A stretch of DNA of 64,000 nt from Malassezia furfur (lineage: Eukaryota): assembly GCA_052055015.1 (NCBI GenBank), contig JBQJIT010000009.1. The stretch is one strand, 5' to 3'. Shown in pieces: positions 3,785 through 62,915 of this stretch. Every line of letters starts with the position of its first letter. Position 1 is the stretch's first letter. The position numbers and the translations under genes were made by a program. The notes below the pieces were generated by a model. It had not been told where the DNA came from and did no database searches. It saw only the letters and a program-made list of their open reading frames with translations.

Positions 3785-4134
3785 GGTGGGCAGACACCGG
3801 GCCTAGGCGCCGAGTCGGGCGCCCTAATGCGCGGGGCCCGGCGCCAAGGGCCAACTCCCAGGGCACATCGTGCAGGTATGACGTCATTGCGTTGGTCCGT
3901 GCCTAGGCCCACGCGGCTCGGCTTGCGATCCGCACGTGGCATCGTCCGTGTCCCAGTGGAGAAGGCGCGTGGCCCTCCAATGCCCCGATGTAGCAGGCAG
4001 TGCTGCTCAGCGCCCGATTCGCGCCATGGGATTGGTGCGGAAGCGCCCCAAATGGTGCCTGAACTCCGCAACGCGCCGGGCAGTGCGCTAGAGGAGGCGA
4101 GGGCGCGCCCCTTCTTTGCGCTTATGGGAACGTT

Positions 4135-5616
4135 ATGGGGCCAATGCACGAACGATCCAGCAGCGTACCAGCCTCGCTTCTCGTTGCCCTCGATCCAGTG
4201 CTGGGCGACATGGATCACAGCACAGCTACAAGCACCGGTACCACCGCCGCGGTGCCTGCGACGCTGTTAGATGCCCAAGCCTCCAGCAGCAATGCATTTC
4301 CACGCCCCTCAATCCCTCCTCGTCCATACACCCCTGTCCATTCCTCCTCTGCACGCTCAGTGACGGATCAACCATATGCGTACGTGGTGCACTCTCCACC
4401 TGCATCACCATCTGCATCGTCCTCGCACCCTGAAGGAGCGCCCAGGTCTGGACCCTATCTGTCCCTGCCCTCGGCACAGAAAGACACATCCCTACTATCT
4501 CCTTCTGCGCATTGGGTCTCGGAGAGCGATCTCACCACACTCTTCGCGCCGTCCTCGCCTAGTGCCTCATCAGTTTCGGACATGGACGAAAAGGCAAGCT
4601 TTTTTGTCGGCGTATCCAAGGACGACGACGACGGCATCTACATCGACCGCCCACCAGAACTCGACAAACTCAACGAGGAACAACAGGCTATCGCAGCCGA
4701 GTACGCGCCCGATCTGGATAGCGAGCAAAAATCGCTTGTGCGCACCCTCCTTTCAACGGCGCTGGATTGGCGTAAATACGTTCGATGGCAGTATTGGCGT
4801 ACGTCACCTACTAACCCAGATTTGTACCTGATAACGGTGACGATCGTGGCCCTGATCATTGTGATCACCGTCTTCCACCATACCCTTGTGCAGGACTTGA
4901 AACCTGCCTCGGAAAAGGTGCGACACCTGGCATGGGGGTGGATCATCCCCGTGCTCCTCCTCTTTGTCCTCTCCTTCCCACCCCTCTTTGGCGGTGAGAT
5001 TATCGCGGTGCTGTGCGGTCTCGTATACGGAGTCTGGATTGGATTCGGCATTGTGGCTTTGGGCACGTTGCTAGGGGAAATCGCCAACTTCCTCTTGTTC
5101 CGCCACATGCTCCAAGCGGCCGCTTCCAAGATGGAGCGGAAGAACTTGACGTATGCGTGCCTTGCCGAGATCATTCGTACGGGCGGGTTTGTGGTCGCAC
5201 TCCTGGCCCGTTTCTCGGCCATACCAGGACATTTGACCACCGCCGTCTTTTCGACGGTGGGTATGCGATTTTGGGTCTTCTTTTTGTCCGCGCTGCTGTC
5301 ACTCCCCAAGCATCTCAGCGTGGTATATTTGGGCGTTGCGCTTGACACCGACAACGAAGAGAAGCACAGCGGCGGCTCCAAAGGTGTGCAAATCGGTGTA
5401 ATTATTGGCGTAGCGGCCATCACCATCGCAATTGCTCTGTACCTTTGGCGCAAGATGGACCAGGTCAACCCCCACGTGCAGCGCAGCATGCAGCTTGAGC
5501 GCTTCCAACGCCTTCATGCAGCCGCGTCCGCCTCGGAGAAACTCAACACCCCCTCTACTACGTCTGTAAATATGATCGATGAGAAGGAAACAGGACCGGT
5601 GCCTGTTTCCCTGTAA
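4135..5616 (+). CDS. Tvp38/DedA (SNARE-associated Golgi) membrane protein
   Basis: SFPPLFGGEI, GTLLGEIANF and ARFSAIPGH motifs with several TM segments. Predicted in-frame 21-nt intron at 4799-4819 (GTACGT..TACTAACCCAG). Start could be 4135 or 4210. Confidence 0.8.
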   Translation: MGPMHERSSSVPASLLVALDPVLGDMDHSTATSTGTTAAVPATLLDAQASSSNAFPRPSIPPRPYTPVHSSSARSVTDQPYAYVVHSPPASPSASSSHPEGAPRSGPYLSLPSAQKDTSLLSPSAHWVSESDLTTLFAPSSPSASSVSDMDEKASFFVGVSKDDDDGIYIDRPPELDKLNEEQQAIAAEYAPDLDSEQKSLVRTLLSTALDWRKYVRWQYWRTSPTNPDLYLITVTIVALIIVITVFHHTLVQDLKPASEKVRHLAWGWIIPVLLLFVLSFPPLFGGEIIAVLCGLVYGVWIGFGIVALGTLLGEIANFLLFRHMLQAAASKMERKNLTYACLAEIIRTGGFVVALLARFSAIPGHLTTAVFSTVGMRFWVFFLSALLSLPKHLSVVYLGVALDTDNEEKHSGGSKGVQIGVIIGVAAITIAIALYLWRKMDQVNPHVQRSMQLERFQRLHAAASASEKLNTPSTTSVNMIDEKETGPVPVSL

Positions 5617-5638: not shown

Positions 5639-7467
5639 CTACGAAGAGTTGCGAGCACCGCGCGCATCCAGCTCGACTTCGTCTGCTTCCGTCGGGAGAG
5701 CGGCAAAGTCGTGCGAGGCGCCGGGCAGATAGCGCCTCAGCGCTAGAGGAACCTCTTTTTGCGACACATAATACAGGGGGATGCCGGCGGCAATGAATGA
5801 AAAGGCTGCAAGCGCTTCCCAAGGGGCTGCGACAACCGGCATCGCGAGGAGGAATAGGGCCATGGCGATAAACACCACAGGGGTGATGAGCCACGTCTTG
5901 TAAGGCCGGTCCAGTTTTGGCTCCTTGATGCGCAGGTATAGCAAGCTTGAAACCGTTGTGCCGTACCAGAACCAGGCACAGACGCCACAGAAATTGACCA
6001 GGCTCGCAAAGCTCGAGCCAAACACCACAAACACGAGGATAAGCGCCGTCGATAGCACTGTCGCGTGAAGGGGACCGCCGAACCGGGGGCTAATTTGACC
6101 CACTGAGCGTGGTAGGAAGGAGTCTTGTCCTGCCGCCATGGTAAGCCGCGAATACGTGTAGAGGTGCCCATTGAGCGCCCCCAGGCACGAAAATGCAACC
6201 ATACCCGCAAACAATAAGCCTCCTGCGGGGCCCAGCGCAACCGTGCCAAAATCAAGTGCGACCGAGTTGGTGCTGGCAACGGTCATGGGCGGAAGAACGA
6301 CAAAGTAGGACACAACGACCGACACAAACGCCGCTGTGACAATGAGGGTACTAGCGTGAATTGCCCGTGGCACATCGCGTCGCGGGTTTTTCATTTCGCC
6401 GGCAACGAATGAGGCCTGGTCCCAGCCATCAAACGCCCACAGCCCACTGTACAGTGCCAATGCATACTGGCTCAGCAAAATTGAGGAGCCCCGGAAGAAG
6501 GATGCCATTGACGAAAAAGCAACTCGCGAAGGAGCAGGCATGTGACCCTGTGCAGCAAACACGATGGCCACCACCGGAATTGTTCCTAAAAGAAGGAGCT
6601 TGATGGCAGTCACTGTATTCTGCAGGCGGATTCCCAGGCGGGGGCTGTAAGCTTGCACCAAGAATACGGTAAGCACCACCAGCGCCGCAATCAACTTGAC
6701 GGCAAAGCGAGGCAGCTCTCCCACGTTGAACTTGCGGAAATCCTCCGAGGAGCCATCATCAAAGAGATGCAAAAGCACGCGCGTGATGTATTCGCCCAAG
6801 ATGGTTGCAATAATCGCGCCGCTGCTCGGCTTCATTGCGATAATTGCCGTCCATGAAAATAGGAATGAGACAAGATGTCCATACGAGTACTGTATTAGAT
6901 TGTATCATACCTGCAAGTAGGCTTGTGCGCCGCCATTCAAGGGAATAGTGGTCGCAAGTTCCGCAAACGAGCTAAATCAGTGGTTGGCTTACCTTGCCCC
7001 GGTCAGGGTCAGCGCTCCACTAATGATCCAGACGACTAGGCTTGCTCCAACTGACCCAGTGTCTGCTGTAACAACTCCAGGCGAGGAGAAAATCCCGCTG
7101 CCCTGCGTGAGTCGACGCGACGTACGACCTGTAAGCCAATGGTCAAAGACATCACTGTGTGAGCAAAAAAGGACACACCATCAATAAGACCAATCCGTGG
7201 TCTCCTGCCTGTTGCATTTTGCGAATGAGAGTGATCAAAGCTCTCGTCAATGTCCCGCGAGGGATGTAGCTGGAAAAGGGCTTCGTCCACAGAAGGGTCA
7301 CCGCTGGGGTCCTCAATGGTCACACTGTTTTTTGCGTGGGCAAGGTGTGGAAGGTGGTGATCGGTTTCTACATCGCGGAATGGTTTTGTAGCGACCTCTC
7401 CAGATCGTCTCCCAGCGGCGGCGACGCCTTCCATGGCCATCGCTTCGTCCAGTGCTCCGTGTTGCAT
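5639..7467 (-). CDS. APC-family L-type amino acid permease (Mup1/LAT-like)
   Basis: After removing introns 7155-7178, 7103-7125, 6972-6992 and 6890-6910 it reads IGLQVGSGIFSSPG..SFAELAT.IPLNGGAQAYL, then LYSGLWAFDGWDQ and GEMKNPRRDVP, typical of the LAT family. Confidence 0.88.
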
Positions 7468-7514: not shown

Positions 7515-8396
7515 ATGTGCGCGGTCCGCGAGTCGTGTTGGTCTGCTGTACGTGCCGCGCACTGACCCAGGGTGCTTCCGAGCTGCTTGAGACGGCTCCG
7601 CTCGCATTCTTCCCACAGGAAACGTGTGTTGCGGTAGGCGCGAGTGCTTATGCAGAAATGCATTGTTTTTGACGAGGCTATTCGGATACTCCTGATCGAT
7701 ATGGATCAATGTCTATGCTTCTATGTCGCGCATTCAAAGGTTTCCATTCGACGATGCATGGATGAAGAAGAAGATGCAGAGATTGAGTCCAAATCTATTT
7801 TTGAACAGCTTCGCTCCGCGATCTACAGGAAGGAAGAATCGGCCTCGGTCAATGTAGCGAAGACCGAGCTACATATTGTAGGTGCTGGATTGACCAAGGC
7901 GACTCTCGACGTGGTTTTTCGCTCCGCTAAGGCAAGAGCGTTACACATGACCATTACTCTGGATGGTATTTTAGGGAATGCCTACCTGTTTGCGAAAGCA
8001 TTTCAGCATTGGACCCATGCGCTGATCCGCATGTCGCTCGGACAGGTACGTCTCACGCCAACCAAGCTCCATTTGCCATTCGAAACAAACCTACCTACGC
8101 TCCTTGCTAGCCCCTTACTGCAGGCGGAGGTGAATGGAGCGATGCCTAGTTCGGACACTTTTCCTCCGGAGGATGCAGATTCGGACGAATCAGGTCCATT
8201 GCTTTTGTCGAGCCAACGGTCGTCGATTGTGTCTACCCCTGCCCACGCGGTGGCCGAAACCACCCCAAATCATCTTTCTCCTTCTAAACGCGGTCAAGAG
8301 GAGCAGGAGCGTCTTGAAGCCATTGAGCTGATCAAGACGGGCCAACAGACTACCCCTCAACGCACGACTCGCAGGAGCAAGGCCGCTCGATTTTAA
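7515..8396 (+). CDS. Hypothetical protein, candidate divergent XLF/Nej1-like NHEJ factor
   Basis: Introns 7548-7570 (23 nt) and 7634-7655 (22 nt) join ATG 7515 in frame to the 7644-8396 ORF. The XLF resemblance was judged by eye only. Confidence 0.55.
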
Positions 8397-8487: not shown

Positions 8488-10303
8488 ATGGCGGACAGTG
8501 CGGTGTTCGCCGCCCAAAATGCACATGAGACTGGGTGTTGCGGCATGAGTTCTCGCTCAGGCACGTCGTCGTTCCAGACCGTGGAATACGGCGAGCGGCG
8601 GATATCCATTGCTGAGGCGCTGGGATTGGGGATCAAATTGCGTGCCGCCTGTGAACAGTGTCGATTGCGCAAACTGCGGTGCTCTGGAGTTTCGAATGAC
8701 GGTCGTGCCTGCTCCCGATGCTCTCAGGACGGTGCAGATTGCTACTTTGGTACGTGATTTTCTGACCTCAGCGACGCAGTCGCAAATTGGCCGACCGCGG
8801 AAATGTGGGGACGATCGCACCCGAATGCGCTCCGCATCGATGAGCAGTGAAGTGGACAGCCCGCGCAAGATGCGCTGTGGGCCCAGTACGCAACGCTGTG
8901 CCGAGATAATAACGCCGCCTGCATTTCCTTCCCTGCCGGCAGAGGACCTCAAGCCCGCCTCACCAGCCTCCGGCTTCACGCCGTCAGTGCCGCCACTGCG
9001 TCCGCAGGACCTCAGTGCAGGTCCGTCGTCGCTGTCAGATCTGTCACTGGCGGTGTTTCTGGAGTCTCTGTATACTCTGGAGATTGCACCATCCGATGGA
9101 TTGACGCCTAGTATGCTCAACATCGGCCAGACTGAATGGAGCGCTGCTTCGGAGATGACCCCGTCGTCCAGCTCCGCCCAGGGTTCCTGCCAGTCCAGTG
9201 AGTATGCGGACAGCGCATTCTTGAACGACAATCTGGTCTACTCCGTGCCGTCGGACTTGCGTTGGTGGAACCTGGCTTGGGCGCTGCCATCGCAGCAGGG
9301 GGGGCACAGTGCATCATCATTGACAACGACGCAAGACACCCATTCCCGTTTTGTCCCAACTCCTGAACGCGTCGCCCCACCTGTGGCGAGCACAAACTCC
9401 GCGTCGCCTGCCGTTCCGCTGGAAGCGGCGCCTTCGTCATCGTCTTGTTGTACGTCCAAGATCAAGGAGGAGCGCACCCCACCACCAGCTGTGGACGACG
9501 ACCTGCACGAAAAAGTGCATTGTGTCCCCAACCCCACGGGTCCGGGATGCTCGTGTCTCTGTGAGTCGGATGTGGCCCTTCTTTCGTTGCAGCGGTCCCT
9601 GCGCAGTGGTCCCCTAGCGATGGACGAAAAGCAGACCAGTACGGATTCGAAGGTCGACGTGGCCTCGTCGCTTGTCTTCACCCTGTCCATGAGCCAGGCC
9701 ATTACGAAAAAGTGTGCGTGCAGTGCCGACTGTCCAACGTGCAAAAAGGACCCGTCGTACGAAATTAGCGCAGGTCTCCTGATTTCCACGGCGCTGCAAA
9801 TTTATGCGCGAGCGCTCAAAGTGTTCCAAGAGGTGTTGGTTTCAGAAGGCAGTACCTCGTGTGGATGCACGTCGTCCGGCTCCTGCAAGCAGTGCCCGTG
9901 CTCGTCCAATCCGCGAAATGGATCGCGTAGTCTCGCCAAAGAGGACGCCGGCGTTGAGGTGCGGATCGGCGACTTTGTGCCAACTTCGCAGAATGCACGC
10001 AAAATTGCGCTGTACGCGATGAAGCTCGAACTGCTCGACCTGGAACGTGCCCTGGCGCACGTTCAACAGGTCGCACAGCAGTCGCTTCCGGCACCACCCG
10101 ACGCTGTGGGCGAGGCACCGCCGCAGGCTCCCAGCGGTTCTTGCTGCGCGAAGAAGTCGGCTGATCTGAAAATCCCCAAGCGCAACACACCCCTCCGACT
10201 CAACCCCATCGACCAGCTGATCATCCGTAAACTCCATGTACAGCTCAGCGAGGTGCTCCAGACGGTCGAGAACCTGGAAGCCAACGAAACTAGATATGTA
10301 TAA
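8488..10303 (+). CDS. Zn(II)2Cys6 transcription factor with Cys-rich C-terminal clusters
   Basis: ACEQCRLRKLRCSG..ACSRCSQDGADCYF binuclear cluster. A 22-nt intron at 8750-8771 joins it to ATQSQIGRPRK and the long 8609-10303 ORF. Confidence 0.88.
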
Positions 10304-10306
10304 TAG

Positions 10307-11814
10307 CTACCCAAACCTTGCCAGGCGGAGCCGCCGCATCTCTTCCGCGGATACGGCGGGTGGTTCCGACTCGGTTTCCTCCTCCTCGTCTTCATCTGAG
10401 GGGTCACTAGAGCGCGGGGGCGTGCTGGTTTCTTTCGCCGGAGGGGCCGGCTCGGGGGGCTTTTGCGCTGCCTCGCGCAGGCGCCGAATACGCTCGACGT
10501 CGGCCGGTAAGGGAGCCGGTGCCGAGGGTGCACGATGCAGCTCGCGCTCAGTATGCGAGCGTAGCCGATCCGACACCTCGTAGGGCTGCCCCAGACTTGC
10601 AGCAATCACTGCCTGGAGCTGCTCATCGTCGTCGTCGAGGTGAACCGGCGCTGGTGCCTCAGACTCCGAGTCACTGCTGTCGATTTCTTGTACGTCGTCG
10701 TCAAACAGGCTCGTGCTCGCCGCTGCGGCAAGAAACGGCGACCGACGCACACTTGGTAGCTCGTCACTGTCGAGGATGTCGGACGAAGACTGCCTCCGTG
10801 AGTTGCGGCGGCTTCGGTTCGGCCGGATGCCAGGGGTATCGGTGGGGTCGTGGTCCGCCGCGCGCTGCTGCCAGCGCCGCTGACTACGATGGCCACTGGT
10901 TGGCAGTGGCTCAAGCACAGGCGACGCAGGCTCATTGCGCGAGCGATGCCGACGTGGCGCGATAGCATCGACATGCAAATCATTCTCTTCGCTGCCAGAG
11001 CTCAGCTCCCGGGCCCGCCGGCGGCGCGGGGTCTGGGTCAGTGGTAGGCAACGTACAAGGCTGTGAGTCTCGCTGTCATGGCGCTGCGCAAACTCTTCGC
11101 GACTCAATCGGAGAGCCTCTTGCAGCTCGGGGTCCTCGTCGTCGGACACGGCAATGGGGGCATCGGCGGTGCCAGGCGCACCATCAAGGCCTGTCTCAGC
11201 CATGTCATCGGCGATACTGTCAAGTGGATCTGCACCTGGTTCCTGCTCCACGACAAACACCGAATATCCCTCCTGCTCAGCCTGCGTCAGCATTGGCACG
11301 TACGGTGTGTAGAAATGTGCCCAGATACGCTTCGCCAAGCCACTGTGGCTTCGCAAAGAAGCTGTTCAAATTAAACCATTGACGCTGCGCACGCCCAAAC
11401 CCACGGATCGCCACCCAGTGGCTACCAAGGTTGAGCACAAAGGCGAATTCGCGCTCCGGGTGGTCATAGCGCTCCGGCATGCCCTGTTTGCGCCAGCGAA
11501 CCAAATTCAGGCTCCACGTCTTAAACGCACGGTCCAGCACCTCGACACTAAAAAACCCTGTGTCGTCCATATGGTGAGCGGTTCCGTTCGTGTCGGCATC
11601 CGCTGGTACAATGCCCAGTTCGCCGCGCTCGTACGAGGCGATTTCTTCAGCAACCTGGCCGAGCTGGCTTGCGTCAAAGAACTGCCCCTGTAGAATTCCG
11701 TTCAGGGCATGCTGCGCACACATCATACTGCCCGGCTCTTGGCGTTCTGATATGAGCAGCGCACGTACCATGATACACGTACGGCAATAGCCGCTCGCCT
11801 CGCTTCGCGGCCAT
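10307..11814 (-). CDS. Ataxin-3-like Josephin deubiquitinase with UIMs
   Basis: YHERQEPGSMMCAQHALN (catalytic Cys), HWVAIR and WFNLNS. UIM-like DPELQEALRLSREE and DEQLQAVIAASL. C-terminal EEMRRLRLARFG. Introns 11747-11768, 11282-11303, 11033-11056. Confidence 0.92.
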
Positions 11815-13380: not shown

Positions 13381-14112
13381 ATGGCCGAGTTGGATGCTGT
13401 GCCGCTTGTTGCGCCCAACGCGCCGGTCGTCGTGGCCGGCGGCACAGTGCTGGGCACACTCGCAGGTGGTATCGTGGGTATCACCACCGGCATCCTCACC
13501 AATCGGCCCGTGCCGCCGCCCGTGCTCGGCGTGCGGTTCGCCAAGGGATGGCTGGCCTTCTCGTTTGGCTTCTTTGGTACGTGCCTGACTCACCCAGCCA
13601 TCCGCGAGTACGCGGTGCGCCCCCTGCTGAACCGCAACATGCCCCAGCGCGAGGGGCCGCATATGCACAACCTACGTGCCACGTTCCTCGCCGGGGGTAC
13701 GATGGGCGCAGTCGCGGCGGCCTTTCTGCGCCGGCCGGTGGTGTCGGGCATTCTGACCATTGCGGGCCTGTGCACGGGCGTACAGCTGATCAGCAATGAG
13801 GTTATGTTCGCTGCCAACGTGGTATCCACCTACGGGCGAACCGAGCCACCGCAGGCTATCCCGGCGCCAGTGCCCACGAATGAGGTCCCCGCGGCGGCCG
13901 AGGCGCCCAGCGCTTCGCCCGAGCCAGTCTCGCGCAACGCGGTGTTGCGCTTCCTGGAGCGGCATGATATTGTCGTACCACTGTCGGACGACCAATACAA
14001 GGAACGGCTGTTGCAGCGCCGCAGCGAAATTGACCGCGAGCTCATCCTCCTCGACCAGGAGCTCGCACAGGAGCGGCGGCAACTCGAACTTTTGCAGAGC
14101 ACCGGTCGCTGA
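13381..14112 (+). CDS. Hypothetical multi-pass membrane protein (Gly-rich TMs, Tim17-like layout) with C-terminal coiled coil
   Basis: ATG 13381 in ccaccATGG context. Gly-rich hydrophobic helices. Predicted in-frame 21-nt intron at 13577-13597. Confidence 0.6.
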   Translation: MAELDAVPLVAPNAPVVVAGGTVLGTLAGGIVGITTGILTNRPVPPPVLGVRFAKGWLAFSFGFFGTCLTHPAIREYAVRPLLNRNMPQREGPHMHNLRATFLAGGTMGAVAAAFLRRPVVSGILTIAGLCTGVQLISNEVMFAANVVSTYGRTEPPQAIPAPVPTNEVPAAAEAPSASPEPVSRNAVLRFLERHDIVVPLSDDQYKERLLQRRSEIDRELILLDQELAQERRQLELLQSTGR

Positions 14113-16994: not shown

Positions 16995-17285
16995 ATGGGT
17001 GTGACGGAGGCGCTGGAGAGCGTGTGGGAAAGCGTGTTCCATGAGGGCGTCAACACGCCGACGCATCGGCTCATGAACATGGCCTTCTACGGACTGTTTA
17101 TCACGCTCACTGGCCTGCTGCTGGCGTCGGGTGGGAATGGGCATGTGCTCGCCTTCCTGGTGCTGTCCGTGTGCCTGTTTATGTCGGTCAACTGGTACGT
17201 GCTCCGCTCACTCAGGTTCATTGCCGAGCTTGAACAAGCCAAGAAGGCGCAAGACGCGCCGGAAAAGGCGGACAAGGCCGAGTAG
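16995..17285 (+). CDS. PKR1: V-ATPase assembly factor Pkr1-like ER membrane protein
   Basis: VWESVFHEGVN, two TMs, then SVNW|FIAELEQAK after removing the 21-nt intron at 17195-17215. Confidence 0.75.
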   Translation: MGVTEALESVWESVFHEGVNTPTHRLMNMAFYGLFITLTGLLLASGGNGHVLAFLVLSVCLFMSVNWYVLRSLRFIAELEQAKKAQDAPEKADKAE

Positions 17286-20281: not shown

Positions 20282-22931
20282 CTACTTGCGCGACTTGCTG
20301 CTGCGCCCTTCGTCCGTCTTGGGCCGGCGGAAGCACAGAAACTCGAGCGCGGTCGCCTTGCGGCTCGCGATCAGCGTTTGCTTCACCGCCTCGAGCTCGG
20401 CGGGAAGCAGTGCGTCCTGCTCGCCGCCGCCGCCGCTCGTACTTGTGTAGCGCTGGCTGATGGTCTCGTAGACGCGCTTGAGCGACTGCTCGGCGCTGGG
20501 CGATACGTGGAACGACATTGTCTGGTGCACAAACTCGATTTCGAGTGTCGCCTGGAGCATGCCGCCCTTGTTGTACACCGGCACGCGGCCGTACGCGCTG
20601 AGCGCCGCGTCCGCCATGATCTCGACCAAGGCCGAGATGACGCGCGACACGAGCGGCGGCACCGTCGCTCGGATCTGCGCGTGGACCTCGACGAGGAGCA
20701 GCAGCGCCTGGTACACGAATGCGTGCACACACGTGGGCTTGTCGTGGTGCGCCCAGTCAATGCCGCCCTCAAGGATGCCGCGGTGCAGCACGGCAGAGAC
20801 AGCGTCGCCCTTGCGTTGCACAAAGTCGTGCAGCAGCTCCTTGTCGAGCTTGGCACAGACGTTGACAAGTTGCTGCGTGAGTGCGCCACGTACCTGCTGT
20901 TCGTCGACGAGCGACACGTGGTAGGCCTCCTCGAACTGCTTCACCCATGCGCCGATGATGTGCGTGCGCAGGTGCGACAGATTCGACACACTCAGCAGAA
21001 TGCGCGTGTCCTGTGTCAGAGGGGGTACGTACGCGGTCGGGGGCGGTGGGCGGAGCGGCAGCGTCGACGGCGCGCGCTTCCCACGCGGCACCCGCATCGG
21101 GGGACAGTGCCGCGGCGACGATCCCCTCGAGGAACGCGTAGAGCGCCTGCACAAACGTCGTCTTGAGGCGTGCACTGAACGCCGCAAGCACCTGGGTGTC
21201 GTGTGCTGACGGCGTCCCCTGCATGCGTGCGCGGCCATCGGCAATGTAAAAGCCCTCGCGCGCGTTCCACCGGTTAAACACGCTGAGCGAGAAAAGGTAG
21301 GACGTGATCGCCGGCTGCTGCGAGTTGGGCGACCAGGTCTCAAGGTGGTGGCACAGGCGCGTGTCGCGCAGCCACAGGCAGCACAGCACCTCGGTGAACT
21401 GGAAGCGCACGTCGAGCACGAGCGCCTCGAGGCGCTGTGTCACGCCGGGAATCGCGAGCGTCTTGAACTCGGCGAGTGTGTCGGTGAGCGAGCCGAGGAT
21501 GCTGCTTAGGTAGTGCGTGGTGCTCAGCGAGCACGACGGATCGGGCACCCACGGGGGCAGGGTTGCAAACAGCGGCTCCTGTGCGCGTGCCGCAAACGGC
21601 GCGAGGCCAAAAAAGGCGTACAGCCGCGTGGTGAACTGGGCCATGCTGTCGGCAGCCCACTGTTGCGCCTGCTGGTGCACGGCCGTGTCGGCGCGGGGCG
21701 CGACCTTGGCGAGGCGCCCCTCGGCGTAGTCGCGTGCGATGCGCCAAAACGTCGGCACGGACTGCACGACGGTGCTGCAGAGCGTCGCGACCATGTGGTC
21801 GATCGCCTCCCAGACGGGTGCATGCAGCGCGCGCGAAAACGACGGCTTGGTGCCGTAGGCGGTGCGCACGAGCGTCAGACACTGGCTCAAGTCGCGCGCC
21901 TGCTCGGCGGTGGTGCGGCCCGTGTGGTCGGCGGTGAGGCGTGCGGCATCGATCGCGCCCTGCTCGCGCTCAAACGCCGCGCGCAGACGCGACTGGATGT
22001 GCTCGTGCTGCGACGCCAAGAACACCGCCACTGGATCCGTCGCAGGGTCCAGCTCGAGGAGCACCTCGATGCACTTTTCCTGCTCCTCGACGCTGTGCTG
22101 TGGCTCGCGCAGGTGGGCGAGGAGGCGCTTCTGCATGTAGTACATGGCGTCCTCCACAGCATCCCACACCTTGGCAAAGATACGGCGCTGCTGCACGAGC
22201 TGCGCCTCGCTCGGTGCTCCGGCCGCGCCCGTGTCCTGCACGGGGAGGAGCTGCCCAGGTCGGCTCTCGAGCAGGTACTTGCCCTTTTTGTAGTCGCGCA
22301 GCGCCGCCTCGTAGTGCCCTGCGCGGATGTTTTCGTTGAGCGAGCCGGGGAGATTGAAGAAGAAGTGCGAGCGCTGGAACACGCCGAGCGTGTTGCGCAG
22401 CTTCATCACCTTGACGTAGTTTTCTAGCACCGGGCGAAACACATGGTCTGCGCGCGCGTTGGCCTGCTGCAACGGCTCGCGCAGCGGCGCCACGCCCAGG
22501 TCCGCACCGGGCGCAAGGGGGCCGCCGGGAAGCGCCATCTCGCGGAAGACGCCGTCGGTGGTCGCCTTGACGCTCACGAAGCGGTCAAAGTTCTCGTCAA
22601 CCAGCACCTTGAGCGCCTCGGAACGCTGCGAGATACTCGTCTTGAGCTGCTGTGCACCACGCGACAGGTCCGCGAACGAGGCATTGGGGTGCACCGTGTT
22701 CAGGAACGCCTTCGCGTCAAACGCCTTGCTCCCGATAGAGATCTGCGGCCGTTGCGACGGCTCGACGCGGCCGACAGGCAGCGTGGCGCGAAGGCCGAGC
22801 GGGTCGTGCCACTCTTCGCCGCTGCCGTCACCGCCGTGCGGCACATCGCCCGTCGTCTGCCACTGCTGGGGGTTGAGCGTCGGCAGCTGGTACGCCTGCA
22901 GCAACTCCGCCTCCTCCACGCGGGCGGCCAT
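20282..22931 (-). CDS. SEC5: Exocyst complex component Sec5
   Basis: FDAKAFLNTVHP..LKVLVDENFDRFVSVK and GGMLQATLEIEF. Introns 21011-21032 (22 nt) and 20873-20893 (21 nt). Confidence 0.9.
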
Positions 22932-32561: not shown

Positions 32562-33533
32562 ATGGACCCCAAGGCGCTCTTCACGACGCGGCTCCTTGGC
32601 TCGCTCCTGAATGAGATTGTAGTGGATACGGCACTCGATGTACATTCTTCTGTGAAGCGGTCCAAGCGCAGGTGCGCGCAGTGCGGAGAATTGTACGTGT
32701 CGAGGCACTCACACAGCTGTACCAAGCATGGTAGGCATCGTACTCACCCAGGCAACGCCGACTCCGCCTCCGCAGCCAACGGCACAAAAACTGACTATTA
32801 CTCAAACAACCCACTGTTTGAGTGTCTTGTGTGCTCGCGCCAGGTGTCATCAAACCGGTATGCGACGCACCTTGAAAAGTGTATGGGTATGGGCGTCAAA
32901 ATGTCGCGCAAGGGGTCGGCGCGCAACGCCAAAACGTCCTCGAACGCAGCCAACGCGCGCCTTCTAAGCAGCACGCCGGTGCCTGAGTCCCCGAGTTCAA
33001 AATCGGCGGCGCTTCCTCGCAAGCGTGCTGCCTCGCCGACGTCGCTGCGCTCGAATGGTTCCGAGAAGCAGATGAAAGTGGACCGGACATCGACACCGTC
33101 CGCGGCGGCTAAGGAACAGGGCAAAGGCACGGGTGCTGGAACGGCGGCAACGGGAGATAAGTCGTCAGCGGTCACGTCGGGTGTACACGAGGGCGAGAGC
33201 AAAGACGGTGTGTCGCAGCGCACAGCGCCAATGGCGCGCGCAGCGTCTAGCGAGGCGGGCACGGCCGGTGACCAGGCGGAGGAGCTAGATATGTCCGACG
33301 ATGCCGACTTCCCGTCGGGCTTCTCGGTGTCGTCCGACTCGGGCAACTCGGAGACGAACGAGGGGGCGTCGGATGCCGAGAACGGAGCGGGCAATGAAGA
33401 TACCATGGAGGAAGTCGAGTTCGACCTAGACAAGGTCGAGGATGACAGCGACAACGACGACGACATTGGTGAGGTCGACATTGATGCCGAGCTGGAGGAC
33501 TCGGATGAGAATGACAATCATGATGATGTATAG
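32562..33533 (+). CDS. SGF11: SAGA deubiquitinase module subunit Sgf11
   Basis: FECLVCSRQVSSNRYATHLEKCMG zinc finger and an acidic tail. In-frame introns 32693-32716 and 32731-32751. Confidence 0.88.
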   Translation: MDPKALFTTRLLGSLLNEIVVDTALDVHSSVKRSKRRCAQCGELYVSRHSHSCTKHGRHRTHPGNADSASAANGTKTDYYSNNPLFECLVCSRQVSSNRYATHLEKCMGMGVKMSRKGSARNAKTSSNAANARLLSSTPVPESPSSKSAALPRKRAASPTSLRSNGSEKQMKVDRTSTPSAAAKEQGKGTGAGTAATGDKSSAVTSGVHEGESKDGVSQRTAPMARAASSEAGTAGDQAEELDMSDDADFPSGFSVSSDSGNSETNEGASDAENGAGNEDTMEEVEFDLDKVEDDSDNDDDIGEVDIDAELEDSDENDNHDDV

Positions 33534-36465: not shown

Positions 36466-37254
36466 ATGGCAGTCCCCGCAGTGCACCGTGCGCTGCCGTT
36501 CTCGAAGCCGGCGGTGCCGCTGGTGTGGTAGGTAAGACCACTGATGCAGCGATGTTCAGGAACGAGTAGGTGATGTTGCTCACCTAGTTCGCGTACGCTT
36601 CCCACTGACCAAGTCATGCGATCCACAAGTTTGACGATGTGGTCGCAACAGCCGTGAAGCTCACCAAAGCAGCGGGCTTCCTTGGAATACCGGTTCTTGC
36701 GACCGAGCAGTATCCGCAAGGTAGGCCGCTTGCTGACGTAGGTCTGGGATCCACGGTGCCCCAGTTGGCCTCTGAGATCAAATCGATTTCGCAGTATGCC
36801 ATTGAGCCGAAACGGGAGTTCAGTATGGCACATGGAAGTCGGTTGCTCGATATGCTTAGGAATGCGACGGGCAAGAGTCATTCCTATGAGGACGTCGAGT
36901 TCATCCTCTGTGGAATCGAAGCCCACGTTTGTGTCTTACAGACCGTGCAGGACCTCTCTCAAAAAGGAGCGTGCACCCATGTTGTCCGCGATGGAATTAG
37001 CTCGTGCAATGGAAAGGAAGTGAACATTGCGGTGCAAGTACGTTAACCGCTCACGCAGGCCATGCGCGAAGCAGGTGCCAACATTGCAACGTCAGAATCC
37101 ATTCTATTCCAGCTGCTAGGTGCGTCTATCGCTAACGTTAGGAAGCGCAGATCATCCACAGTTCAAGAACATCTCGCGTCTAATTGTACGTGGCCCGCTC
37201 ATCCAGCGTGAATCGCAAGCGCGCACGCACCAAGCGCTCGCGGCGTTGTGCTGA
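36466..37254 (+). CDS. Isochorismatase-family hydrolase (ISOC-like)
   Basis: Seven 21-22 nt introns (36528-36549, 36566-36587, 36593-36613, 36721-36741, 37038-37058, 37120-37141, 37186-37206) give CDVQERFAHAIHKFDDVV..TEQYPQGLGSTV..GIEAHVCVLQT..TSESILFQLLGSADHPQFKNISRLI. Confidence 0.9.
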
Positions 37255-38859: not shown

Positions 38860-39168
38860 ATGCAGCAGGCCAAGTCGACCAAATGGTCGCCTGGGCGAAT
38901 GTATGCGTTGTATGTTCATTGTCTAACTAACGTAAGATGGACATTCATGACGGTCTCTATGTTTTCAAGTGTATTTTTGATTAAGTCTTACAACCGGACA
39001 CGAAAACGTGAATACATTGCTTCCAAGATCCAGGAAGAAGGAGGTACGCGAATCACTCACGCAGGAAAGCCGCGGCTGCAAAGCCTGAACTCATCGCCCT
39101 CAAACGCAGTATCACCGATCGAGTCCTTACTTCAAAATCTATCTCGACAATGGGACAAAAAGTCCTAA
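38860..39168 (+). CDS. Small single-pass membrane protein, unknown function
   Basis: aaaATG at 38860 and one TM helix. Two motif-consistent in-frame introns: 38910-38936 (27 nt) and 39044-39064 (21 nt). Confidence 0.6.
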   Translation: MQQAKSTKWSPGRMYALYVHCLTNVRWTFMTVSMFSSVFLIKSYNRTRKREYIASKIQEEGGTRITHAGKPRLQSLNSSPSNAVSPIESLLQNLSRQWDKKS

Positions 39169-41002: not shown

Positions 41003-41232
41003 ATGACGCGTGAGTCGTCGTGACTGACGCAGGCGGCAACGCTCGAGAACTCGCTCGTGCAAAGAACCAAAAAAAGCAGGCCCAGCAGAACAAGGGCAAG
41101 AACACCAGCGGCATGTCGTTGGCGCAGCGCCGCGAGCATGATGCGGCGGCGCTGCGCGCCAAGCAGGAAGTACGTCGAAACCTAACGCAGGCGGCGGCTG
41201 CAAAAAAGGCAGGGGGGCAAGGAACTTCCTAG
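41003..41232 (+). CDS. SERF/4F5-family small EDRK-rich factor
   Basis: MTRGNARELARAKNQKK after the 23-nt intron 41010-41032. Second intron 41170-41190 (21 nt). Confidence 0.88.
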
Positions 41233-46285: not shown

Positions 46286-49200
46286 ATGGCGAAGCGGCGC
46301 GCGGCGTCCGCGCGCGAAGACGACGGCGACGCAGAGGACGCGGCGCGCGAGGATTTGGAGCTGTTTGTACGTGGAACACTGACGCAGTCCAAACGCGCGC
46401 GTATCGCCACACCGTCGGACGATGAGGCAGACGCGTCGGGCCCCGAGCGCGTGTTGGACGCACGCGGCGGGTCGACCGAGCGCGACGCGTCGCCTGCAGA
46501 GGAGGAGGAAGGGGGCGCTACGAACGGGATAGAGGGTGAGGAATCTCCCGCGACACCATTGTCGCCCGTGCTGCGCGGTGCACCTGCATCGGAGTCGATG
46601 GGCGTTATTGAGCGGGTGGATATGATCAACTTCATGTGCCACCGCAACCTAAGCATTGCGCTGGGCCCCCGCATCAACTTTATCATTGGACACAATGGGA
46701 GCGGCAAGAGTGCGATCCTCACTGCCATCACGATTGCGCTCGGCGGCAAGGCAAGCACGACGAGTCGCGGGAGCAGCATCAAGGACTTTGTGCGTGAAGG
46801 CGCGAGCGCTGCCGAGGTGCGGGTGCACCTGAGCAACCGTGGGCGCGACGCCTTCCGCCCTGACACCTATGGGGATACGATCACTGTTGAGCGGCGCATC
46901 CATGCGGACGGCAACGGCGCGTGGAAGATTCGCGGCGCACACGGCAAGACGGTGTCGACGAAGCGCGAGGAGCTCGATGCAATCTGCGACCACGCCAACA
47001 TCCAGGTGGACAACCCGATGAACATCCTGACGCAGGATGCCGCGCGCCAGTTTCTAGGCAGTGCCCAGCCCGAGGACAAGTACAGCTTCTTTCTGCGCGG
47101 CACGCAACTGACGCAGCTCGCGCAAGAATACGAGCTGATTCAGACCAACATCCAGCGCATGAAGCGCGCCATGGTCACCACCGAGGAGCTGCTGCCGGAC
47201 CTCGAGCGCGAGGCGCGCGAGGCCAATGCCAAATGGCAGCTTGTCGAGCAGGCGCGCGCCGAGCAAGAGAAGCTGAACAGCCTCAAGGACGAGCTGGTGT
47301 GGAGCCAGGTGATTGCCAAAGAGACCGAGCTCGCCGACGCCGTCGAGGCGCTTGTGCGCGCGCGTGCGAAGCTCGACGCGCTGCAGCGCAAGTGCGAGGC
47401 GGACCGCGAGCGCGGTGCGGCGCTCGACGCGCAGATCGCTGCGCTCGAGCAACGCAATGGCGAGTGCAACGAGCGCGAGCGCACGCTCGGCGAGCAGCGC
47501 GCGGCTGAGGTGCAGGCGATGAAAACCTTCCGTGCGGAGCTGGCCTCGATCAAGGCGCAGGAGCGCGACGTGAGCCAGCAGGCCGACCGTGTGCAGCACA
47601 CCATCCGCCACTTCCAGGCGCAGATCGACGCCGAGGCGCGCAAGTTGGCGCGCGATCACCGCGCGGTGCGCGACGAGCAGGCGGCGCGGCGCGATGCGCT
47701 CAACCAGGAGCGACTCGACAACGAGATGGCCCAGGTCGCGGCCACCGAGCAGATCGACACGCTGCGTGCGCAGCAGGACGCGGAGCGCGACGAGCGTGCA
47801 CAGCATGCCGCAGAGCGCAACACGCTCGAGGAGAAGCTTGCGCACCTGGAGCAGTTTGTGCGCCGCTGCGAGGACGCCGCGGCGAACCGCGTCACGGCGT
47901 TCGGTGGGCGAGGCATGCCGCAGGTGCTCGCCGACATTGCGCGCGAGACGCGCTGGCGGCAGCCGCCTGTTGGGCCGCTCGGCATGCACATGCGCCTGCG
48001 CGACGCGCGATGGGCGCCCGTGGTCGAGGCGGTGCTGAACGACGCGCTGAACGCGTTCTGCGTCACGAACCACGCCGACCGTGCGCTGCTGACGCGCATC
48101 CTGCAGCAGCACCAGGTGCGTTTGCAAATTTTCACCGCGGCGCCCGATCTCTTTGACTATGCGCATGGCGAGCCCAGCGCCGAGATCCTCACGGTGCTGC
48201 GTGCGCTCGAGATTGACGACCCCTACATTACGCGTGCACTGATCACCAGCGCCGACATTGAAAAGAGCGCACTGGTGCGCGAGCGTGCGCAGGGCGACCG
48301 GCTGATGCGTGCGGCACCCGCCAACGTTCTGCGTTGCTTTTCGATGGACTTGTTCCGCATCACGGGCGGGCCGACGGGCAGCTCGACGCAGACCCTCAAC
48401 GCGGCGCCCGGCGTGCCACGCTTTGCCACGGACACGCGCGCGCAGGTCGCTGAGGCGCAGGACACGATGCGCACCTACCGTGCGGACCTCGCCCGCGTGC
48501 AAGACACGCTGCGTGCGCACGCGGAGCGGCAGGAGCGCACACAGCGCGAGCTGCGGCGCGCCGAGCAGTCGCTGGCCGAGCTGAAGCAGGCGCACCGCGC
48601 GCTGCGCCAGCAGATCGCACGCGTCGAGGACGAGATGCGTGAAGACGAGCCGGCGAACGTCGCGGCGCTCGAGGAGGCGCGCAACGACGCCGAGGAAGAG
48701 ATGGCGCGCATTGTCGAGCAGTTCAAGTCGCTCGAGAACCGCAAGGAGGCGCAGCAGGAGGCGCTTGCGCCGCATGCCGAGCGTGCGGAGCAGCTGCGCG
48801 AACAGGTCGAGATTCTCGCGTCGGAGCGCAATACGATTCAGGACGAGTTACAGACCATCTTCTCTGAGCGCGTGCGCCTGCGCAAGAACGAAGAGTACTG
48901 GACGGCACAGATCACCGCGCAGACGGAGCTGATCGCCTCGACGGAGCGCAACGAGGCCACCCTTTCGCAGCAGGTCGACGAGTGGACCGCCCAGGCGACC
49001 GAGTACTGTCCACGTGTCGAGACGCGGCGTACGCCTGCGTGGCTCGAACGGCAGATCAACACGATCGAGGCACAGCTCGCTGAGGCCGACCGCCACGCGG
49101 GTCTGCAGCTCGAGACGGTGGTGCGCGAGCTGCGTGCCAAGAACAAGGCATTCCAGGAGGCGAAGCAGTACCTCGACAGCACGCGCGCGACGATTGCCGT

Positions 49201-51154: not shown

Positions 51155-53376
51155 ATGGCGAGGGCCGTGCGCATCGTCGGCCTGGCGCTTCTGGCGCTGT
51201 TCGCGCACGGCGTGTGCGCGGACGACGACCGCGAGGTGCTTGAGCGCGCGCGTGCACGGATCGCGCGCGAGCGCACCGAGGTGCACGGATGGCTCACGCA
51301 CAATGCCACCGAGCAGGGCAACTGGACCTGGGTACGTTGCGCCGCTTACACAGATGCACGACGACGACACGGCACTCGCGGCACCACTGCACGACATCTA
51401 TGCGCCATTTGATGGTGACTACGTGTTTCCGCGTAACGTGAGCGGGTTCTTTGACGGGAATTTTAGTACACATACCTACGCAGCGCGCGACGCCAACGAG
51501 ACGCGCGTGGCACGCGACCGGGGCGCGCTCGACTGGTCCGCCAAGAAAACGCGTCTCGAGGCGCAGCTGTATGAGCGAGATGTACAGCGCACCAATGTGT
51601 CGCAAGTGTGGGGCTCGATCGTTGTCACTCTGCCACGCAACACGAGCCAGAGCCGTGTCGGAATCGAGCTCGACGTGAACGGCGTGCTGGTGCCCCGCAC
51701 GGGACGCTTGTACGTCGTTGCGATGCCGCGCACCTCGCCACGCATCCTCGACATCCGCGAGGTCTTGGCGATGGTACCGCTCAACGACACACAGCTCGTC
51801 AACGATACTTACACGACGGTGGTGCACGACATGGACGACCGCCTCGCGCGGATCGACGCGATGCTTGCGCACCACGAGCCACTCGCGCCGTCCGACGCGC
51901 CAAGCGCCGAGGGTGCCAACAACTGTTCGATGCATCTCTACGGGCAGCTTGCGCCGCTCGGCACGCGCGCGGACGAAGCGGCGCTGCGCCTGCGTGAGGA
52001 CCAACTCGCGCACCCCAACGGCATCGTGACGCGGCGGATCCCGCCGATGCATCTTGCGGTCGTCGGCGTATCGGATACATGCGGGCTGCGCATTGGCGCG
52101 TCCGCTCTCGAAGGCATTGCGATGCGCCAATTTTGGGACGATACGCGGTGGTACCTGCTTGGGATGATGGGCATCGTCCTGGTCCAGCTCGTGCTGATGA
52201 TGCGCATGAGCGAGCGCGTGCGCACCGAGAGCGCCATTGCCAAGGTGTCGGGCGTGTCGTTCTTTATCCAGACCATGTATGACGCACACGTGTGCCTGGC
52301 GCACCTGATTGTGGGCGCGTCACTGAACAGCTCGCTGAGCCTTGGCATGGTACGTGGACAACTGACGCCAGTTTGCGGTGGCGTTCCTCGCGGGGGTGCT
52401 GTTCCTTGCGTACGAGTATCCGCTAGTGGTGACCGTGCTGCGGCAGTCGGTGCAGTCGGCACCGCCGCCGCCGCCGCCGCCAGCGCCGGCGCCGGTGCCG
52501 GAGGTGGATACGGCGCCCGGTGAGGCGCCGTCCCCGGGACTGGCCGCCGACCCCCGCACTGCATGGTCGGCGCGCCTTGCGGCCGTGCGTGGTGCCGTGG
52601 CCGACACCGCGCGCGATATGCCGCGCGTCTCTGCCTCGCTCGTCGTGACGCTCGTGGCGTTTGTGATCTCGATTGTGATGCCGAGTTTGCTGGCGCTGCT
52701 GCTGATCCCCGTGCTGTTCTCGTTTTGGGTGCCGCAGATCGTGCACAATGCGCGTGTGCGCGCGTCGGGCGTGCGTGCGTCGACGGCGATCGGCATGACA
52801 CTCACGCGCTTCTACCTACCGCTGTGTACGTGTGAGACTGACGCAGACCTGTTCTGGTACCCCCACAACCTGCTGTTCTTTGAGCGCACGCGCGTCGTGT
52901 GGCTGCCCATCGTGTGGCTGATGGTGCAGATGCTCGTGCTTGTTGGGCAGGATACGTTTGGCCCGCTCTTTTTCGTGCCGCGCGCCTGGCGCGAGCATGA
53001 GGCGCAGTGGGACTGGCACCCGACGCCCGAGGCGCTGCATCGCCTGCTGCGCGACGCGGACGACGTCGAGGTGCCGGCGGTGCGTGATGCACGCGACGTG
53101 CCGCTCGGCGACTGCCCCGTGTGCCTTGCGCCGAACACGTGGGAGACCGAGGAGACCGACGACGCCGAGGACGCACGCCTGCTTGGCGGCGCGTCGGCGC
53201 GCAGCGCATGGTGGCCCTGGGCGCGGCGGCGTGCGGCCCGCAGCAATGTGATGGTCACGCCGTGCAAGCACATCTTCCACACGGCGTGCCTGGAGCCGTG
53301 GATGAGCATTCGGCACGTGTGCCCCGGCTGCCGGCTGCCGCTGCCGCCGTACGAGGAAGGGGGGCGTCGTGAGTAG
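51155..53376 (+). CDS. TUL1: Tul1/Dsc1-like transmembrane RING E3 ubiquitin ligase
   Basis: Signal peptide, lumenal domain, TMs with SFWVPQI, and RING CPVC..VTPCKHIFHTACLEPW..CPGCR. Introns 51332-51353, 52350-52371, 52826-52846. Confidence 0.85.
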
Positions 53377-56574: not shown

Positions 56575-57631
56575 TATATACGGAACAGGCGCGCCGCGTT
56601 GCGGAGCGCGTGCTCGGCGAGCTCGGCGAGGCGCACGTTGTGCACGCGCGCGACCACGGCGGCCACCTCGCCGATGCAGCACGGCTCGTTGCGGCCTTTT
56701 ACAGCACTCGTAGCATTCCAGCGCTCAGGCTTGGCGCGCGGCGGCGAGTACAGCGCGGCAAGCTGCGGCTCCTCGCGCCGGAACTGCTCCAAGAGCGGCG
56801 CCGAGGCATGCGTCGTACGCAGGTCGCACCACGGTGCGTCTGGGATGAGCACGTCACGTACCAGTCTCAAGCATGATGCGGTGTAGCGGGATCTGTCGCA
56901 CCACCTCGAGGTTTTCGGCGGTCTTGAGCGAGCAGCCATTCACGCCGACAAACAGGCCGAGCGACAGCAGTTCGCGCAGCTCGTCGGCCGTGCCGGTGTA
57001 GCTGTGCACCACGCCGACGCACCCGGGCTCATCAGCGTTTGGCTCGCTTGTAGTCCCAGCGTTGCGGCGCAACGCCGCCAGGTGGGGGCGCAGCACCTGC
57101 ACAAAGTCGGCATGCGCCGCGCGCGAATGCAGAAAGAGCGGCAGGCGCGTCGTCTCAGCGAGCGCCAACTGCGCGTCAAACGCGGCTTTTTGGGCATCTG
57201 CCGGGGCAAAATGCAGCCGATCGTAGTCTGTGTAAGGCCGCACACGTACCCAGTCCACACTCGCCGATCGCCACGATCCGTCCGTCGTTCGTCCCGAGAC
57301 GGTGTGCGTCAACGAGCGCCTGCAGCGCTGCCATGTACGCGGATGAGCCGCCCTCGTGCGATGTCACTTCGGTGCTCCGCGTAGGATGGCATCCTGCCGT
57401 AGCGTACAGGTTCGGCCGCAGCTGCGTGAGGCGCAGCACCTCGTTCGTCTCGGCAAGCGAGCCGGCCGTGATGATCTGTGCCCGCACGCCGGCACGCTCG
57501 GCACGGTCCAGCACATGAGCAAGGTCATCAGGATGCTTTTCCTTGTCGTGGTATACGCCGCGGAACATGGGGTCGCCCAAGTTCACGGCGATCTCGACAT
57601 ACGCCGGCACGGGCGCCGGCGCTTCGGCCAT
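56574..57631 (-). CDS. TatD-family DNase
   Basis: GCHPT, AIGECGLDYDRLHF, LFLHSR, VVHSYTG, LETDAPW and KGRNEPC. Introns 57228-57249 and 56840-56861. Confidence 0.93.
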
Positions 57632-61385: not shown

Positions 61386-62915
61386 TCATCGCCACTGGTG
61401 CTGCTTCGCGCCAATGGCAACCGCAAGGTCCTCGAGCTCACGTCCCCATGCATGAGCTACCCCGGCCTGCCGGCGGCTCACCTGCTCCGCACGCGGCGCA
61501 AGCTCGAGCGTCCCCTCCACCTGGTCAATCCGACCGCGAATGCGCCCGTCGAGGATAAGCATCAGCACGAGCGACGTCACCCGTTCCTCTGCGAGCTGCA
61601 GCATGTCGGCCAATGCCGAGAGCCGGATGGAGCCATAGGGCCGCACAGCACCGATTAGGTATTGGATCCTCAGCTCCGTGAGCACGTCTGCAATGAACTC
61701 GCGGATAAAGTCGTCGTCGGTGAGCGTTGCATGGTTGTCTGGGTGAGCATGGCACGTACCGCGCACAATGCGCTCGGCACCCTGTACATCACGCCGCTGG
61801 TAGGCGTCGACAAGCGAGGTCATCGCGACAATGTTGGGGTCGTCGCGGTATGGCTTAGTCTCCTGCGAGTCAAATGGGTTGACGTCGCTACCCATAAGCA
61901 TGTGCGCTAGCACAAGATATTTGAGAACTTGGATGCGCAGCTGGCTTCCCGCTTCATCGTAGTTGCGGAACGCCTGGAAAAAGTCGACCTGCGCGGCCTC
62001 CCAGTTTTCTGCGTGAGCGTGCGACGTACTTTCGGCCATATGCATCTTACCGCCGCTCTCGCGAATCATGCCCATGGTGCGGGGGTGCGGAATCGCATTC
62101 TTGATTCGCATCGCTGCATCGTAGGTGTCCTGCATCAGTGTGTTGACCCACCTTGACTTTCTTCAGGTTGCCCATCTCGCGGTACATTTGGATCTCGAGC
62201 GCGAGCAGCTCCAGCATGAGCGTGCCCTTGGACTGTCCGTCGCCAGCATCGGCCGCGAACTCGTTTGCGCGCAGCTCACGCAGCGTCTCGGTAAGCCGCG
62301 CCCACTCTTTGCGCGACAGCCACAGCCGCGCAAGTTTCAGCTTAATCTTCATGTTGAGCCGGTCGCTCTGCGACGCGGCCAGCACCTCGTCTGTCGCTTG
62401 GTAGAATGCCTCGAGGATCGCGAGGGACGCATTCGACGCTGAGACGTAGTCGAGGATCGAGTTGACCGATTTTTCGCTGCATCAGTTTCCCACGTACGTG
62501 TAGTTTCGCGTTACGGCTGACTTGGTATACTTGAGCAGTGCGCGATAGGTCCGCAGCGCCTCTTCGTGCTGTCCCCGATGGAAATGGATCTTGGTCTGCT
62601 GCTTGAGCGCCTTGAATCCCCTGTGTGAGCGCATCCACATACCACTCGGTCATATCTGTCTCGGCATCCAAGATGTCCTGAAGCTCGCGGATCGCCGCGT
62701 CGGGCTGCTCAGCCTTGATGGCTGCGTCAGTGCGATGCATAGGTACCCTTCGCGTTGTAGTATTTGTTCTCGATATATGCGTCCGCATCTTGCTCATCGT
62801 CGTCGTCCTCATACTCGAAGTCATAGTCCTGCATAAGTCGGTTGCGCGCACCTCTTCGAGCGCATCGTCCATCATAAACTGCGTCAGTGGCGCGGCCTAC
62901 CTCCTCGTCCGACAT
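61386..62915 (-). CDS. CSN2: COP9 signalosome subunit 2
   Basis: MSDEEFMMDD..IENKYYNAK..EWGFKALKQ..VTRNYTEKSVNSILDY..IPHPR..NPFDSQETKPY. Eight introns: 62879-62900, 62829-62851, 62722-62746, 62621-62642, 62477-62497, 62130-62151, 62009-62029, 61739-61759. Confidence 0.95.

Follow-up and report, generated by a model that had tools for sequence, protein, structure and literature searches.

Results

A 16-nt lower limit between donor and putative branch adenosine

Sequence comparisons across a 64,000-nt stretch of Malassezia DNA (the window, G000:C9:1-64000) and the 13.7 Mb, 1856-contig assembly to which it belongs support a strict minimum of 16 nt, counted from the first G of an intron to its putative branch adenosine, regardless of total intron length. 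That this 16-nt floor is real and applies genome-wide can be stated with high confidence. The window contains eukaryotic housekeeping genes, among them an open reading frame running stop to stop at 4063-5616 (+) and encoding a TVP38/VTT-domain Golgi membrane protein with 86% identity to a Malassezia brasiliensis protein, proteins of other Malassezia ranking next. Within this gene lies the focal intron, a 21-nt U2-type intron at 4799-4819 (+) that is in frame and without a stop codon. It begins with the 5' splice site GTACGT (4799-4804, +; intron positions 1-6), followed by a 4-nt linker (4805-4808, +; positions 7-10) that sequence logos and duplicate-copy comparison indicate to be weakly constrained. 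The branch motif TACTAAC (4809-4815, +; positions 11-17) is the full complement of the U2 GUAGUA box and places the putative branch A at 4814 (+), intron position 16 (hereafter A16). The remaining 5 nt to the 3' splice site, CCCAG (4815-4819, +), form the commonest tail in called introns. In an alignment of 15 homologs taken from the best 120 of 226 matches, 12 cover the site and 3 do not; the seven-residue insert encoded by 4799-4819 is absent from 9 of these 12 and present as a read-through in the other three (P0001, P0003 and P0007).

Seventy introns were called in the window, with a median length of 22 nt and a density of approximately 1.1 introns per kb, using a motif-based caller that required the A at position 16 or beyond. 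They have the GT...YAG ends, GTACGT donor consensus and CAG or TAG tail ends of U2-type introns, and a branch motif consensus of RCTNAY in which N is C in 45%, G in 30%, T in 14% and A in 11%. The branch-like A lies at position 16 in 22 introns, 17 in 18 and 18 in 13, and the tail is of 5 nt in 59, 6 nt in eight and 7-8 nt in three. All 17 called 21-mers combine A16 with a 5-nt tail. Besides the focal intron, 21-nt introns with A16 are located on the + strand at 13577-13597, 17195-17215, 32731-32751, 36593-36613, 36721-36741, 37038-37058, 37186-37206, 39044-39064, 41170-41190, 46367-46387 and 52826-52846, and on the - strand at 6890-6910 (in an amino-acid permease gene), 6972-6992, 20873-20893, 61739-61759, 62009-62029 and 62477-62497. 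The intron at 36593-36613 has an AAG acceptor and an in-frame stop, and its removal opens a reading frame that we take to be isochorismatase-like. Four 21-mers quoted in the original prediction were all present, with CTNA at positions 13-16 and the A sixth from the end. Several 22-mers had been said to keep the A at 16 and add a base after it; this describes the five that were named, all A16 with a 6-nt tail (8750-8771, +; 11747-11768, -; 37120-37141, +, with donor GTGCGT; 52350-52371, +, which restores the frame in the motif-free scan described below; and 56840-56861, -), whereas 17 of the 22 window 22-mers have A17 and a 5-nt tail. As these carry the extra base before the A, intron length varies mainly in that part. 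The remaining 48 of the 70 introns, within 1-64000, are 22-37 nt long with the A at 17-30.

Some further features were noted among these introns. AAG-acceptor candidates are found at 36593-36613 (+) and 38910-38936 (+), and micro-exons of 16, 5 and 11 nt lie between tiny introns (window 36528-36613, +; L009:2979-2989, +). A 21-nt in-frame candidate at 8046-8066 (+) has a perfect donor, a non-consensus CCAAC with A16 and an AAG acceptor; being stopless, a multiple of three in length and poor in motif, it is beyond the reach of the frame tests below.

Since the caller demanded A16 or beyond, neither these tallies nor the frame test alone show a floor. Matches to a GTA[CT]G donor, CTNAY and a 4-8-nt tail were counted by position in the window, giving 0 at each of A10-A15 and 18, 9, 9, 3 and 3 at A16-A20, with 0.0-0.3 matches per position in 10 dinucleotide shuffles as control. 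Genome-wide, a GTAYGT donor gave 629 matches at A16 vs 2 at A15 (reversed-pattern controls 0 and 1, respectively), counts that take in duplicate gene copies because many loci are duplicated. Both sets of counts agree with the original prediction that no A precedes position 16. When tails were set at 6-8 nt, so that an A15 intron would total 21-23 nt (its A16 equivalent up to 24), there were 206 matches at A16 (control 5) vs 3 at A15 (control 1). As A15 stays rare even with longer tails, the limit is one of donor-to-branch distance and not of total length.

The duplicated loci lie on separate contigs with introns diverged between copies, as in the diverged pairs L002/L010, L003/L005, L004/L006, L007/L008 and L015/L020. 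A haploid Malassezia genome is given as 7-9 Mb (PMC7426719), and from this and the duplicate loci a duplicated or hybrid genome, probably of the M. furfur group, is inferred.

Tail length and 20-nt introns

Introns with a 4-nt tail and the A at 16-19 gave 32 matches genome-wide vs 4 in the control, of which 12 are 20 nt long (A16), 2 are 21 nt (A17), 8 are 22 nt (A18) and 10 are 23 nt (A19). The twelve 20-mers represent approximately eight independent sites, one of them ambiguous (L001, with tandem CAGCAG). Removal restored the frame in 10/10 tail-4 introns with confident flanking frames. The exons flanking the 20-nt intron of L003 match positions 1-33 and 35-54 of Pfam RRM_1, and the 20-nt length is kept in both copies of five duplicate pairs. 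More generally, 31 of 36 duplicate intron pairs have identical geometry; in 4 the difference lies upstream of the A and in the remaining pair it lies in the tail. The shortest intron would on these sequences be of 16 + 4 = 20 nt, common ones being of 21-23 nt.

An alternative is that the floor acts on total length, at 21 nt, through a rigid fused unit of 16 + 5. The uniform geometry of the window 21-mers and the predominance of the 5-nt tail are what such a unit would produce, and a combined branch/acceptor sequence is known in Yarrowia (PMC2911113). It would, however, allow the 21-23-nt A15 introns that are so rare genome-wide, and the conserved 20-nt introns and the 6-8-nt tails common at A16 also contradict it; we consider it very unlikely. 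Accordingly, the 16-nt loop of the original prediction stands as a distance limit, its 21-nt minimum does not, and the "one fused element" proposed for branch site and 3' splice site survives as a 5-nt mode but not as a rigid unit, tails ranging from 4 to 8 nt.

Among the tail-4 introns, those with A17, whose length is a multiple of three, are scarce relative to the other three classes, and tails of greater length occur more often when the A is at 16 or 19 than when it is at 17 or 18. Avoidance of lengths divisible by three is not supported as the source of this tail variation: 26 of 71 window introns have such lengths and 24-nt A16 introns are not scarce.

Apparent exceptions to the limit

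All five genome-wide A15 matches were fetched and examined. Two (L013 and L015) begin 4 nt inside an upstream GTACGT donor and so fit longer introns; for L015 the longer intron is of 26 nt, a length shared by its duplicate copy. At L014 the frame fits a 33-nt intron whose branch motif is distal. The L016 match falls in an NDUFB9 gene, where a CTGAC placing the A at 15, together with its CAG at 23, is bypassed in favour of a branch motif at 27. Of 19 homologs, 5 have the sequence produced by removal of a 34-nt intron, 1 has a near variant of it and none has the 23-nt product; the others are read-throughs or skip the region. At L012 the same coding frame scores best on both sides and the unspliced frame is open, albeit with weak scores, and this is probably a chance match in coding sequence.

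A broader donor pattern with the A at 12-15 gave 441 matches genome-wide vs 38 in the control. Shadow donors of this kind arise because GTACGT itself ends in GT. In the window, 3/3 such matches are nested in longer introns; among 42 candidates in the 169 kb examined, 34 likewise lie within a longer intron and a distal branch motif accompanies 1 other, which leaves 7 free candidates, compared with approximately 8.7 expected from shuffles. The free candidates include the L002/L010 pair, which apparently lies 5' of the start codon, probably in the 5' UTR. The segment 49601-49622, tried as an A11 or A14 intron, reads instead as coding sequence, presumably for the C-terminus of an SMC-family protein as judged by motif recognition.

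Reading-frame tests and motif-free scan

A codon-position model, built from 14 long ORFs of the window (21 kb), was applied to the 215 called introns with full flanks in 169 kb, and gave confident frames on both sides for 82 and not for the other 133. The frame was kept after removal in 82/82, including all 60 introns whose length is not a multiple of three. Where an out-of-frame inner GT would put the A at 10-15, the donor giving A16 or beyond fits in 63/63 cases, these inner GTs being weaker donors as well. A scan that made no use of a branch motif returned 79 GT/GC-AG clusters whose removal restores the frame, and the donor is good in 44 of them. Thirty-three of these 44 are 20-25 nt long and every one of the 33 carries CTNAY with the A at 16-20; 3 of the remainder are below 20 nt and 8 are longer.

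Shorter candidates from this part of the work were examined individually. Two 13-mers from the scan coincide with the first bases of called introns of 22 and 25 nt and share their length modulo three, which makes them a tie-break artefact; the third short hit, a 16-mer, lies antisense to an open frame. A 16-nt intron at L009 is less economical than a reading with two introns of 20 and 23 nt; a Pfam check there left the first exon without a match.

A different explanation would dispense with a mechanical floor altogether and invoke ongoing shrinkage by deletion bias, or an artefact of motif searching. It draws on the use of motifs by the caller and on stopless introns of 3n length with poor motifs, exemplified by 8046-8066, which escape every test applied. 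It has to contend with a pile-up of introns at the edge itself, at A16-A18 in the window, with the fall from 629 to 2 matches over one base, where the shifted pattern serves as an internal control, and with the recovery of the same lengths by the motif-free scan. We regard it as highly improbable.

Splicing machinery and origin of the limit

One copy of the U2 snRNA gene with a canonical GUAGUA box and two copies of the U6 gene with a canonical ACAGAGA box were found in the assembly, and Slu7 and Prp18 are both present. Co-evolved snRNA boxes were discounted, as the U2 and U6 boxes are canonical. The step-II factors Slu7 and Prp18 are linked to the branch-to-acceptor distance; their presence excludes loss of these factors as the cause of the short tail. 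A search with Rfam RF00003, run without a positive control, did not find U1 snRNA in the 1856 contigs; U1 may have diverged, or the assembly may lack it. RED_N was likewise not found in a search without a positive control. Complementarity to U2 exceeds the background at BP-4 (79%); at BP-5 (28%) it no longer does, and values of 22-56% over BP-5 to BP-13 give no indication of an extended U2 helix upstream of the branch motif. Since pairing stops beyond BP-4, the branch footprint would occupy approximately positions 12-17, leaving a linker of 4-5 nt to the donor.

These introns are best interpreted as ordinary U2-type spliceosomal introns that have shrunk against a physical limit. The CTNA adenosine would act as branch nucleophile when paired to the U2 GUAGUA box, as motif and complementarity suggest. 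Sixteen nucleotides would then be the shortest lariat loop able to hold the donor, bound by U1 and subsequently by the U6 ACAGAGA box, and the U2 branch helix at the same time. The acceptor would be a YAG 4-8 nt past the branch A, mostly 5, and would be positioned from the branch site, because there is no room for a polypyrimidine tract. Conceivably branching takes place at a nucleotide other than the CTNA adenosine, or excision follows a non-lariat or non-spliceosomal route. The distance of approximately 52 nt from donor to branch required in the human B complex (PMC6692369), too long for these introns to span, lends this alternative some appeal. Against it stand the GT-AG ends, the GTACGT donors, the complementarity of CTNAY to the canonical U2 box of this genome and the presence of U6, Slu7 and Prp18, which together make it extremely improbable.

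A steric origin of the limit at some assembly step, either through simultaneous engagement or through an earlier collision, is very likely. A minimum set by simultaneous engagement of donor and branch site is our preferred form of this and, judged from the intron sequences, is probable. The earlier collision would place the limit at initial recognition, with the footprints of U1 and of SF1/U2 colliding in the E/A complex, and not in the activated or catalytic core. Human early complexes fail to assemble once the donor and branch site, normally 50 nt apart in these experiments, are brought to within 35 nt (PMC6692369), G is favoured at intron position +7 (in 62% of 65 A16 introns), and the failure of RF00003 to detect U1 might mean divergence; set against this last point, the U1 search lacked a positive control and the assembly is divided among its many contigs. 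A limit at early recognition is unlikely, if less so than the explanations rejected above.

On the preferred reading of simultaneous engagement, the helices must be shorter and the assembly tighter or differently ordered, because 16 nt cannot span the gap in the human B complex. A tentative extension, which we consider possible but doubtful, is that the Malassezia spliceosome follows a remodelled assembly in which the U6:donor and U2:branch helices are accommodated within a 4-5-nt linker, without extended helices or a polypyrimidine tract and perhaps with U1 diverged and RED absent, and that it applies a precise 16-nt ruler to thousands of introns.

Annotation of Malassezia proteins

Reading through of tiny introns is a widespread annotation error in Malassezia database proteins. 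Besides P0001, P0003 and P0007 at the focal site, it was observed in P0122, P0124, P0126 and P0128-P0132. Because stopless introns of 21 and 24 nt are read through, annotation of Malassezia needs a minimum intron size of 20 nt.

Discussion

Introns of approximately 20 nt raise the question of how a multi-megadalton spliceosome handles them, and other extreme cases (Stentor, nucleomorphs, myxozoans and microsporidia) are hard to manipulate. For Malassezia, Agrobacterium transformation and CRISPR exist (PMC7426719). A one-base cliff on a defined distance in a transformable fungus makes the limiting assembly step experimentally addressable. Were the remodelled assembly true, this would be the first genetically tractable fungus showing a bypass of the 15-nm gap of the human B complex with canonical U2 and U6.

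Short introns in Malassezia, fused branch and acceptor signals (in Yarrowia) and a minimum donor-to-branch distance (in human) are already published. In Malassezia sympodialis 5350 introns, 99% with RNA-seq support, have a mean length of 30 bp (PMC5389616), compared with the median of 22 nt in this window; the main text of that paper never uses the word "branch" and gives no branch-point geometry. A review describes Malassezia as having "very short introns" (PMC7426719). The median intron of myxozoans reaches 22, and the introduction of that report does not place Malassezia among the exceptions (PMC13644364); the accessible text of PMC8476143 and PMC13685798 adds no branch geometry. In the literature searched, in which few subscription papers were covered, neither a floor at 16 nt nor the branch geometry of Malassezia introns was found to be described.

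The narrow and short branch-to-AG distance, with a 5-nt tail predominant and a 4-nt tail rare, recalls Yarrowia and Trichomonas. In Yarrowia lipolytica the commonest distance from branch point to AG is 2 nt (TACTAAC|NN|AG), equivalent to the 5-nt tail here (PMC2483917, PMC2911113). Yarrowia introns are long, however, with a median of 204, so that they do not probe a donor-to-branch floor; the Yarrowia branch motif is mostly ACTAAC, whereas that of Malassezia is a degenerate CTNAY and lacks the near-invariant ACTAAC of an intron-poor genome. Short-intron lineages tend towards weak signals unless very intron-poor (PMC2483917), a trend from which Malassezia departs in having strong signals at its intron density. 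The type B introns of Trichomonas, at 23-25 nt, are of similar size and have a branch site fused with the 3' motif (PMC12316389), but only 24 such introns are described there, with a 12-nt 3' motif and a longer tail, as against an estimated thousands in Malassezia.

The 15-16-nt introns of Stentor coeruleus resemble those described here in their fixed branch A and 5-nt tail and in the canonical U2 GUAGUA and U6 ACAGAGA boxes (PMC9505925). They differ in having a 10-11-nt loop, AU-rich sequence, no branch consensus and nearly a single length (PMC9505925), whereas Malassezia introns are GC-rich, have strong donor and branch motifs, show no excess at A10-A15 in the window with GTA[CT]G donors, and have a floor at 16 with a spread above it and lengths of 20 nt and up. 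Since Stentor branches at position 10 (PMC9505925), 16 nt is a lineage-specific and not a universal limit. A possible reason for the differing limits is that Malassezia keeps both strong signals and Stentor has lost them.

In human splicing, as here, it is the donor-to-branch distance and not intron length that is limiting, in a manner involving Smu1/RED (PMC6692369). The human minimum is approximately 50-52 nt, with helices of 17 and 14 nt held 15 nm apart (PMC6692369), and the 16-nt limit in Malassezia is thus approximately one third of the human limit.
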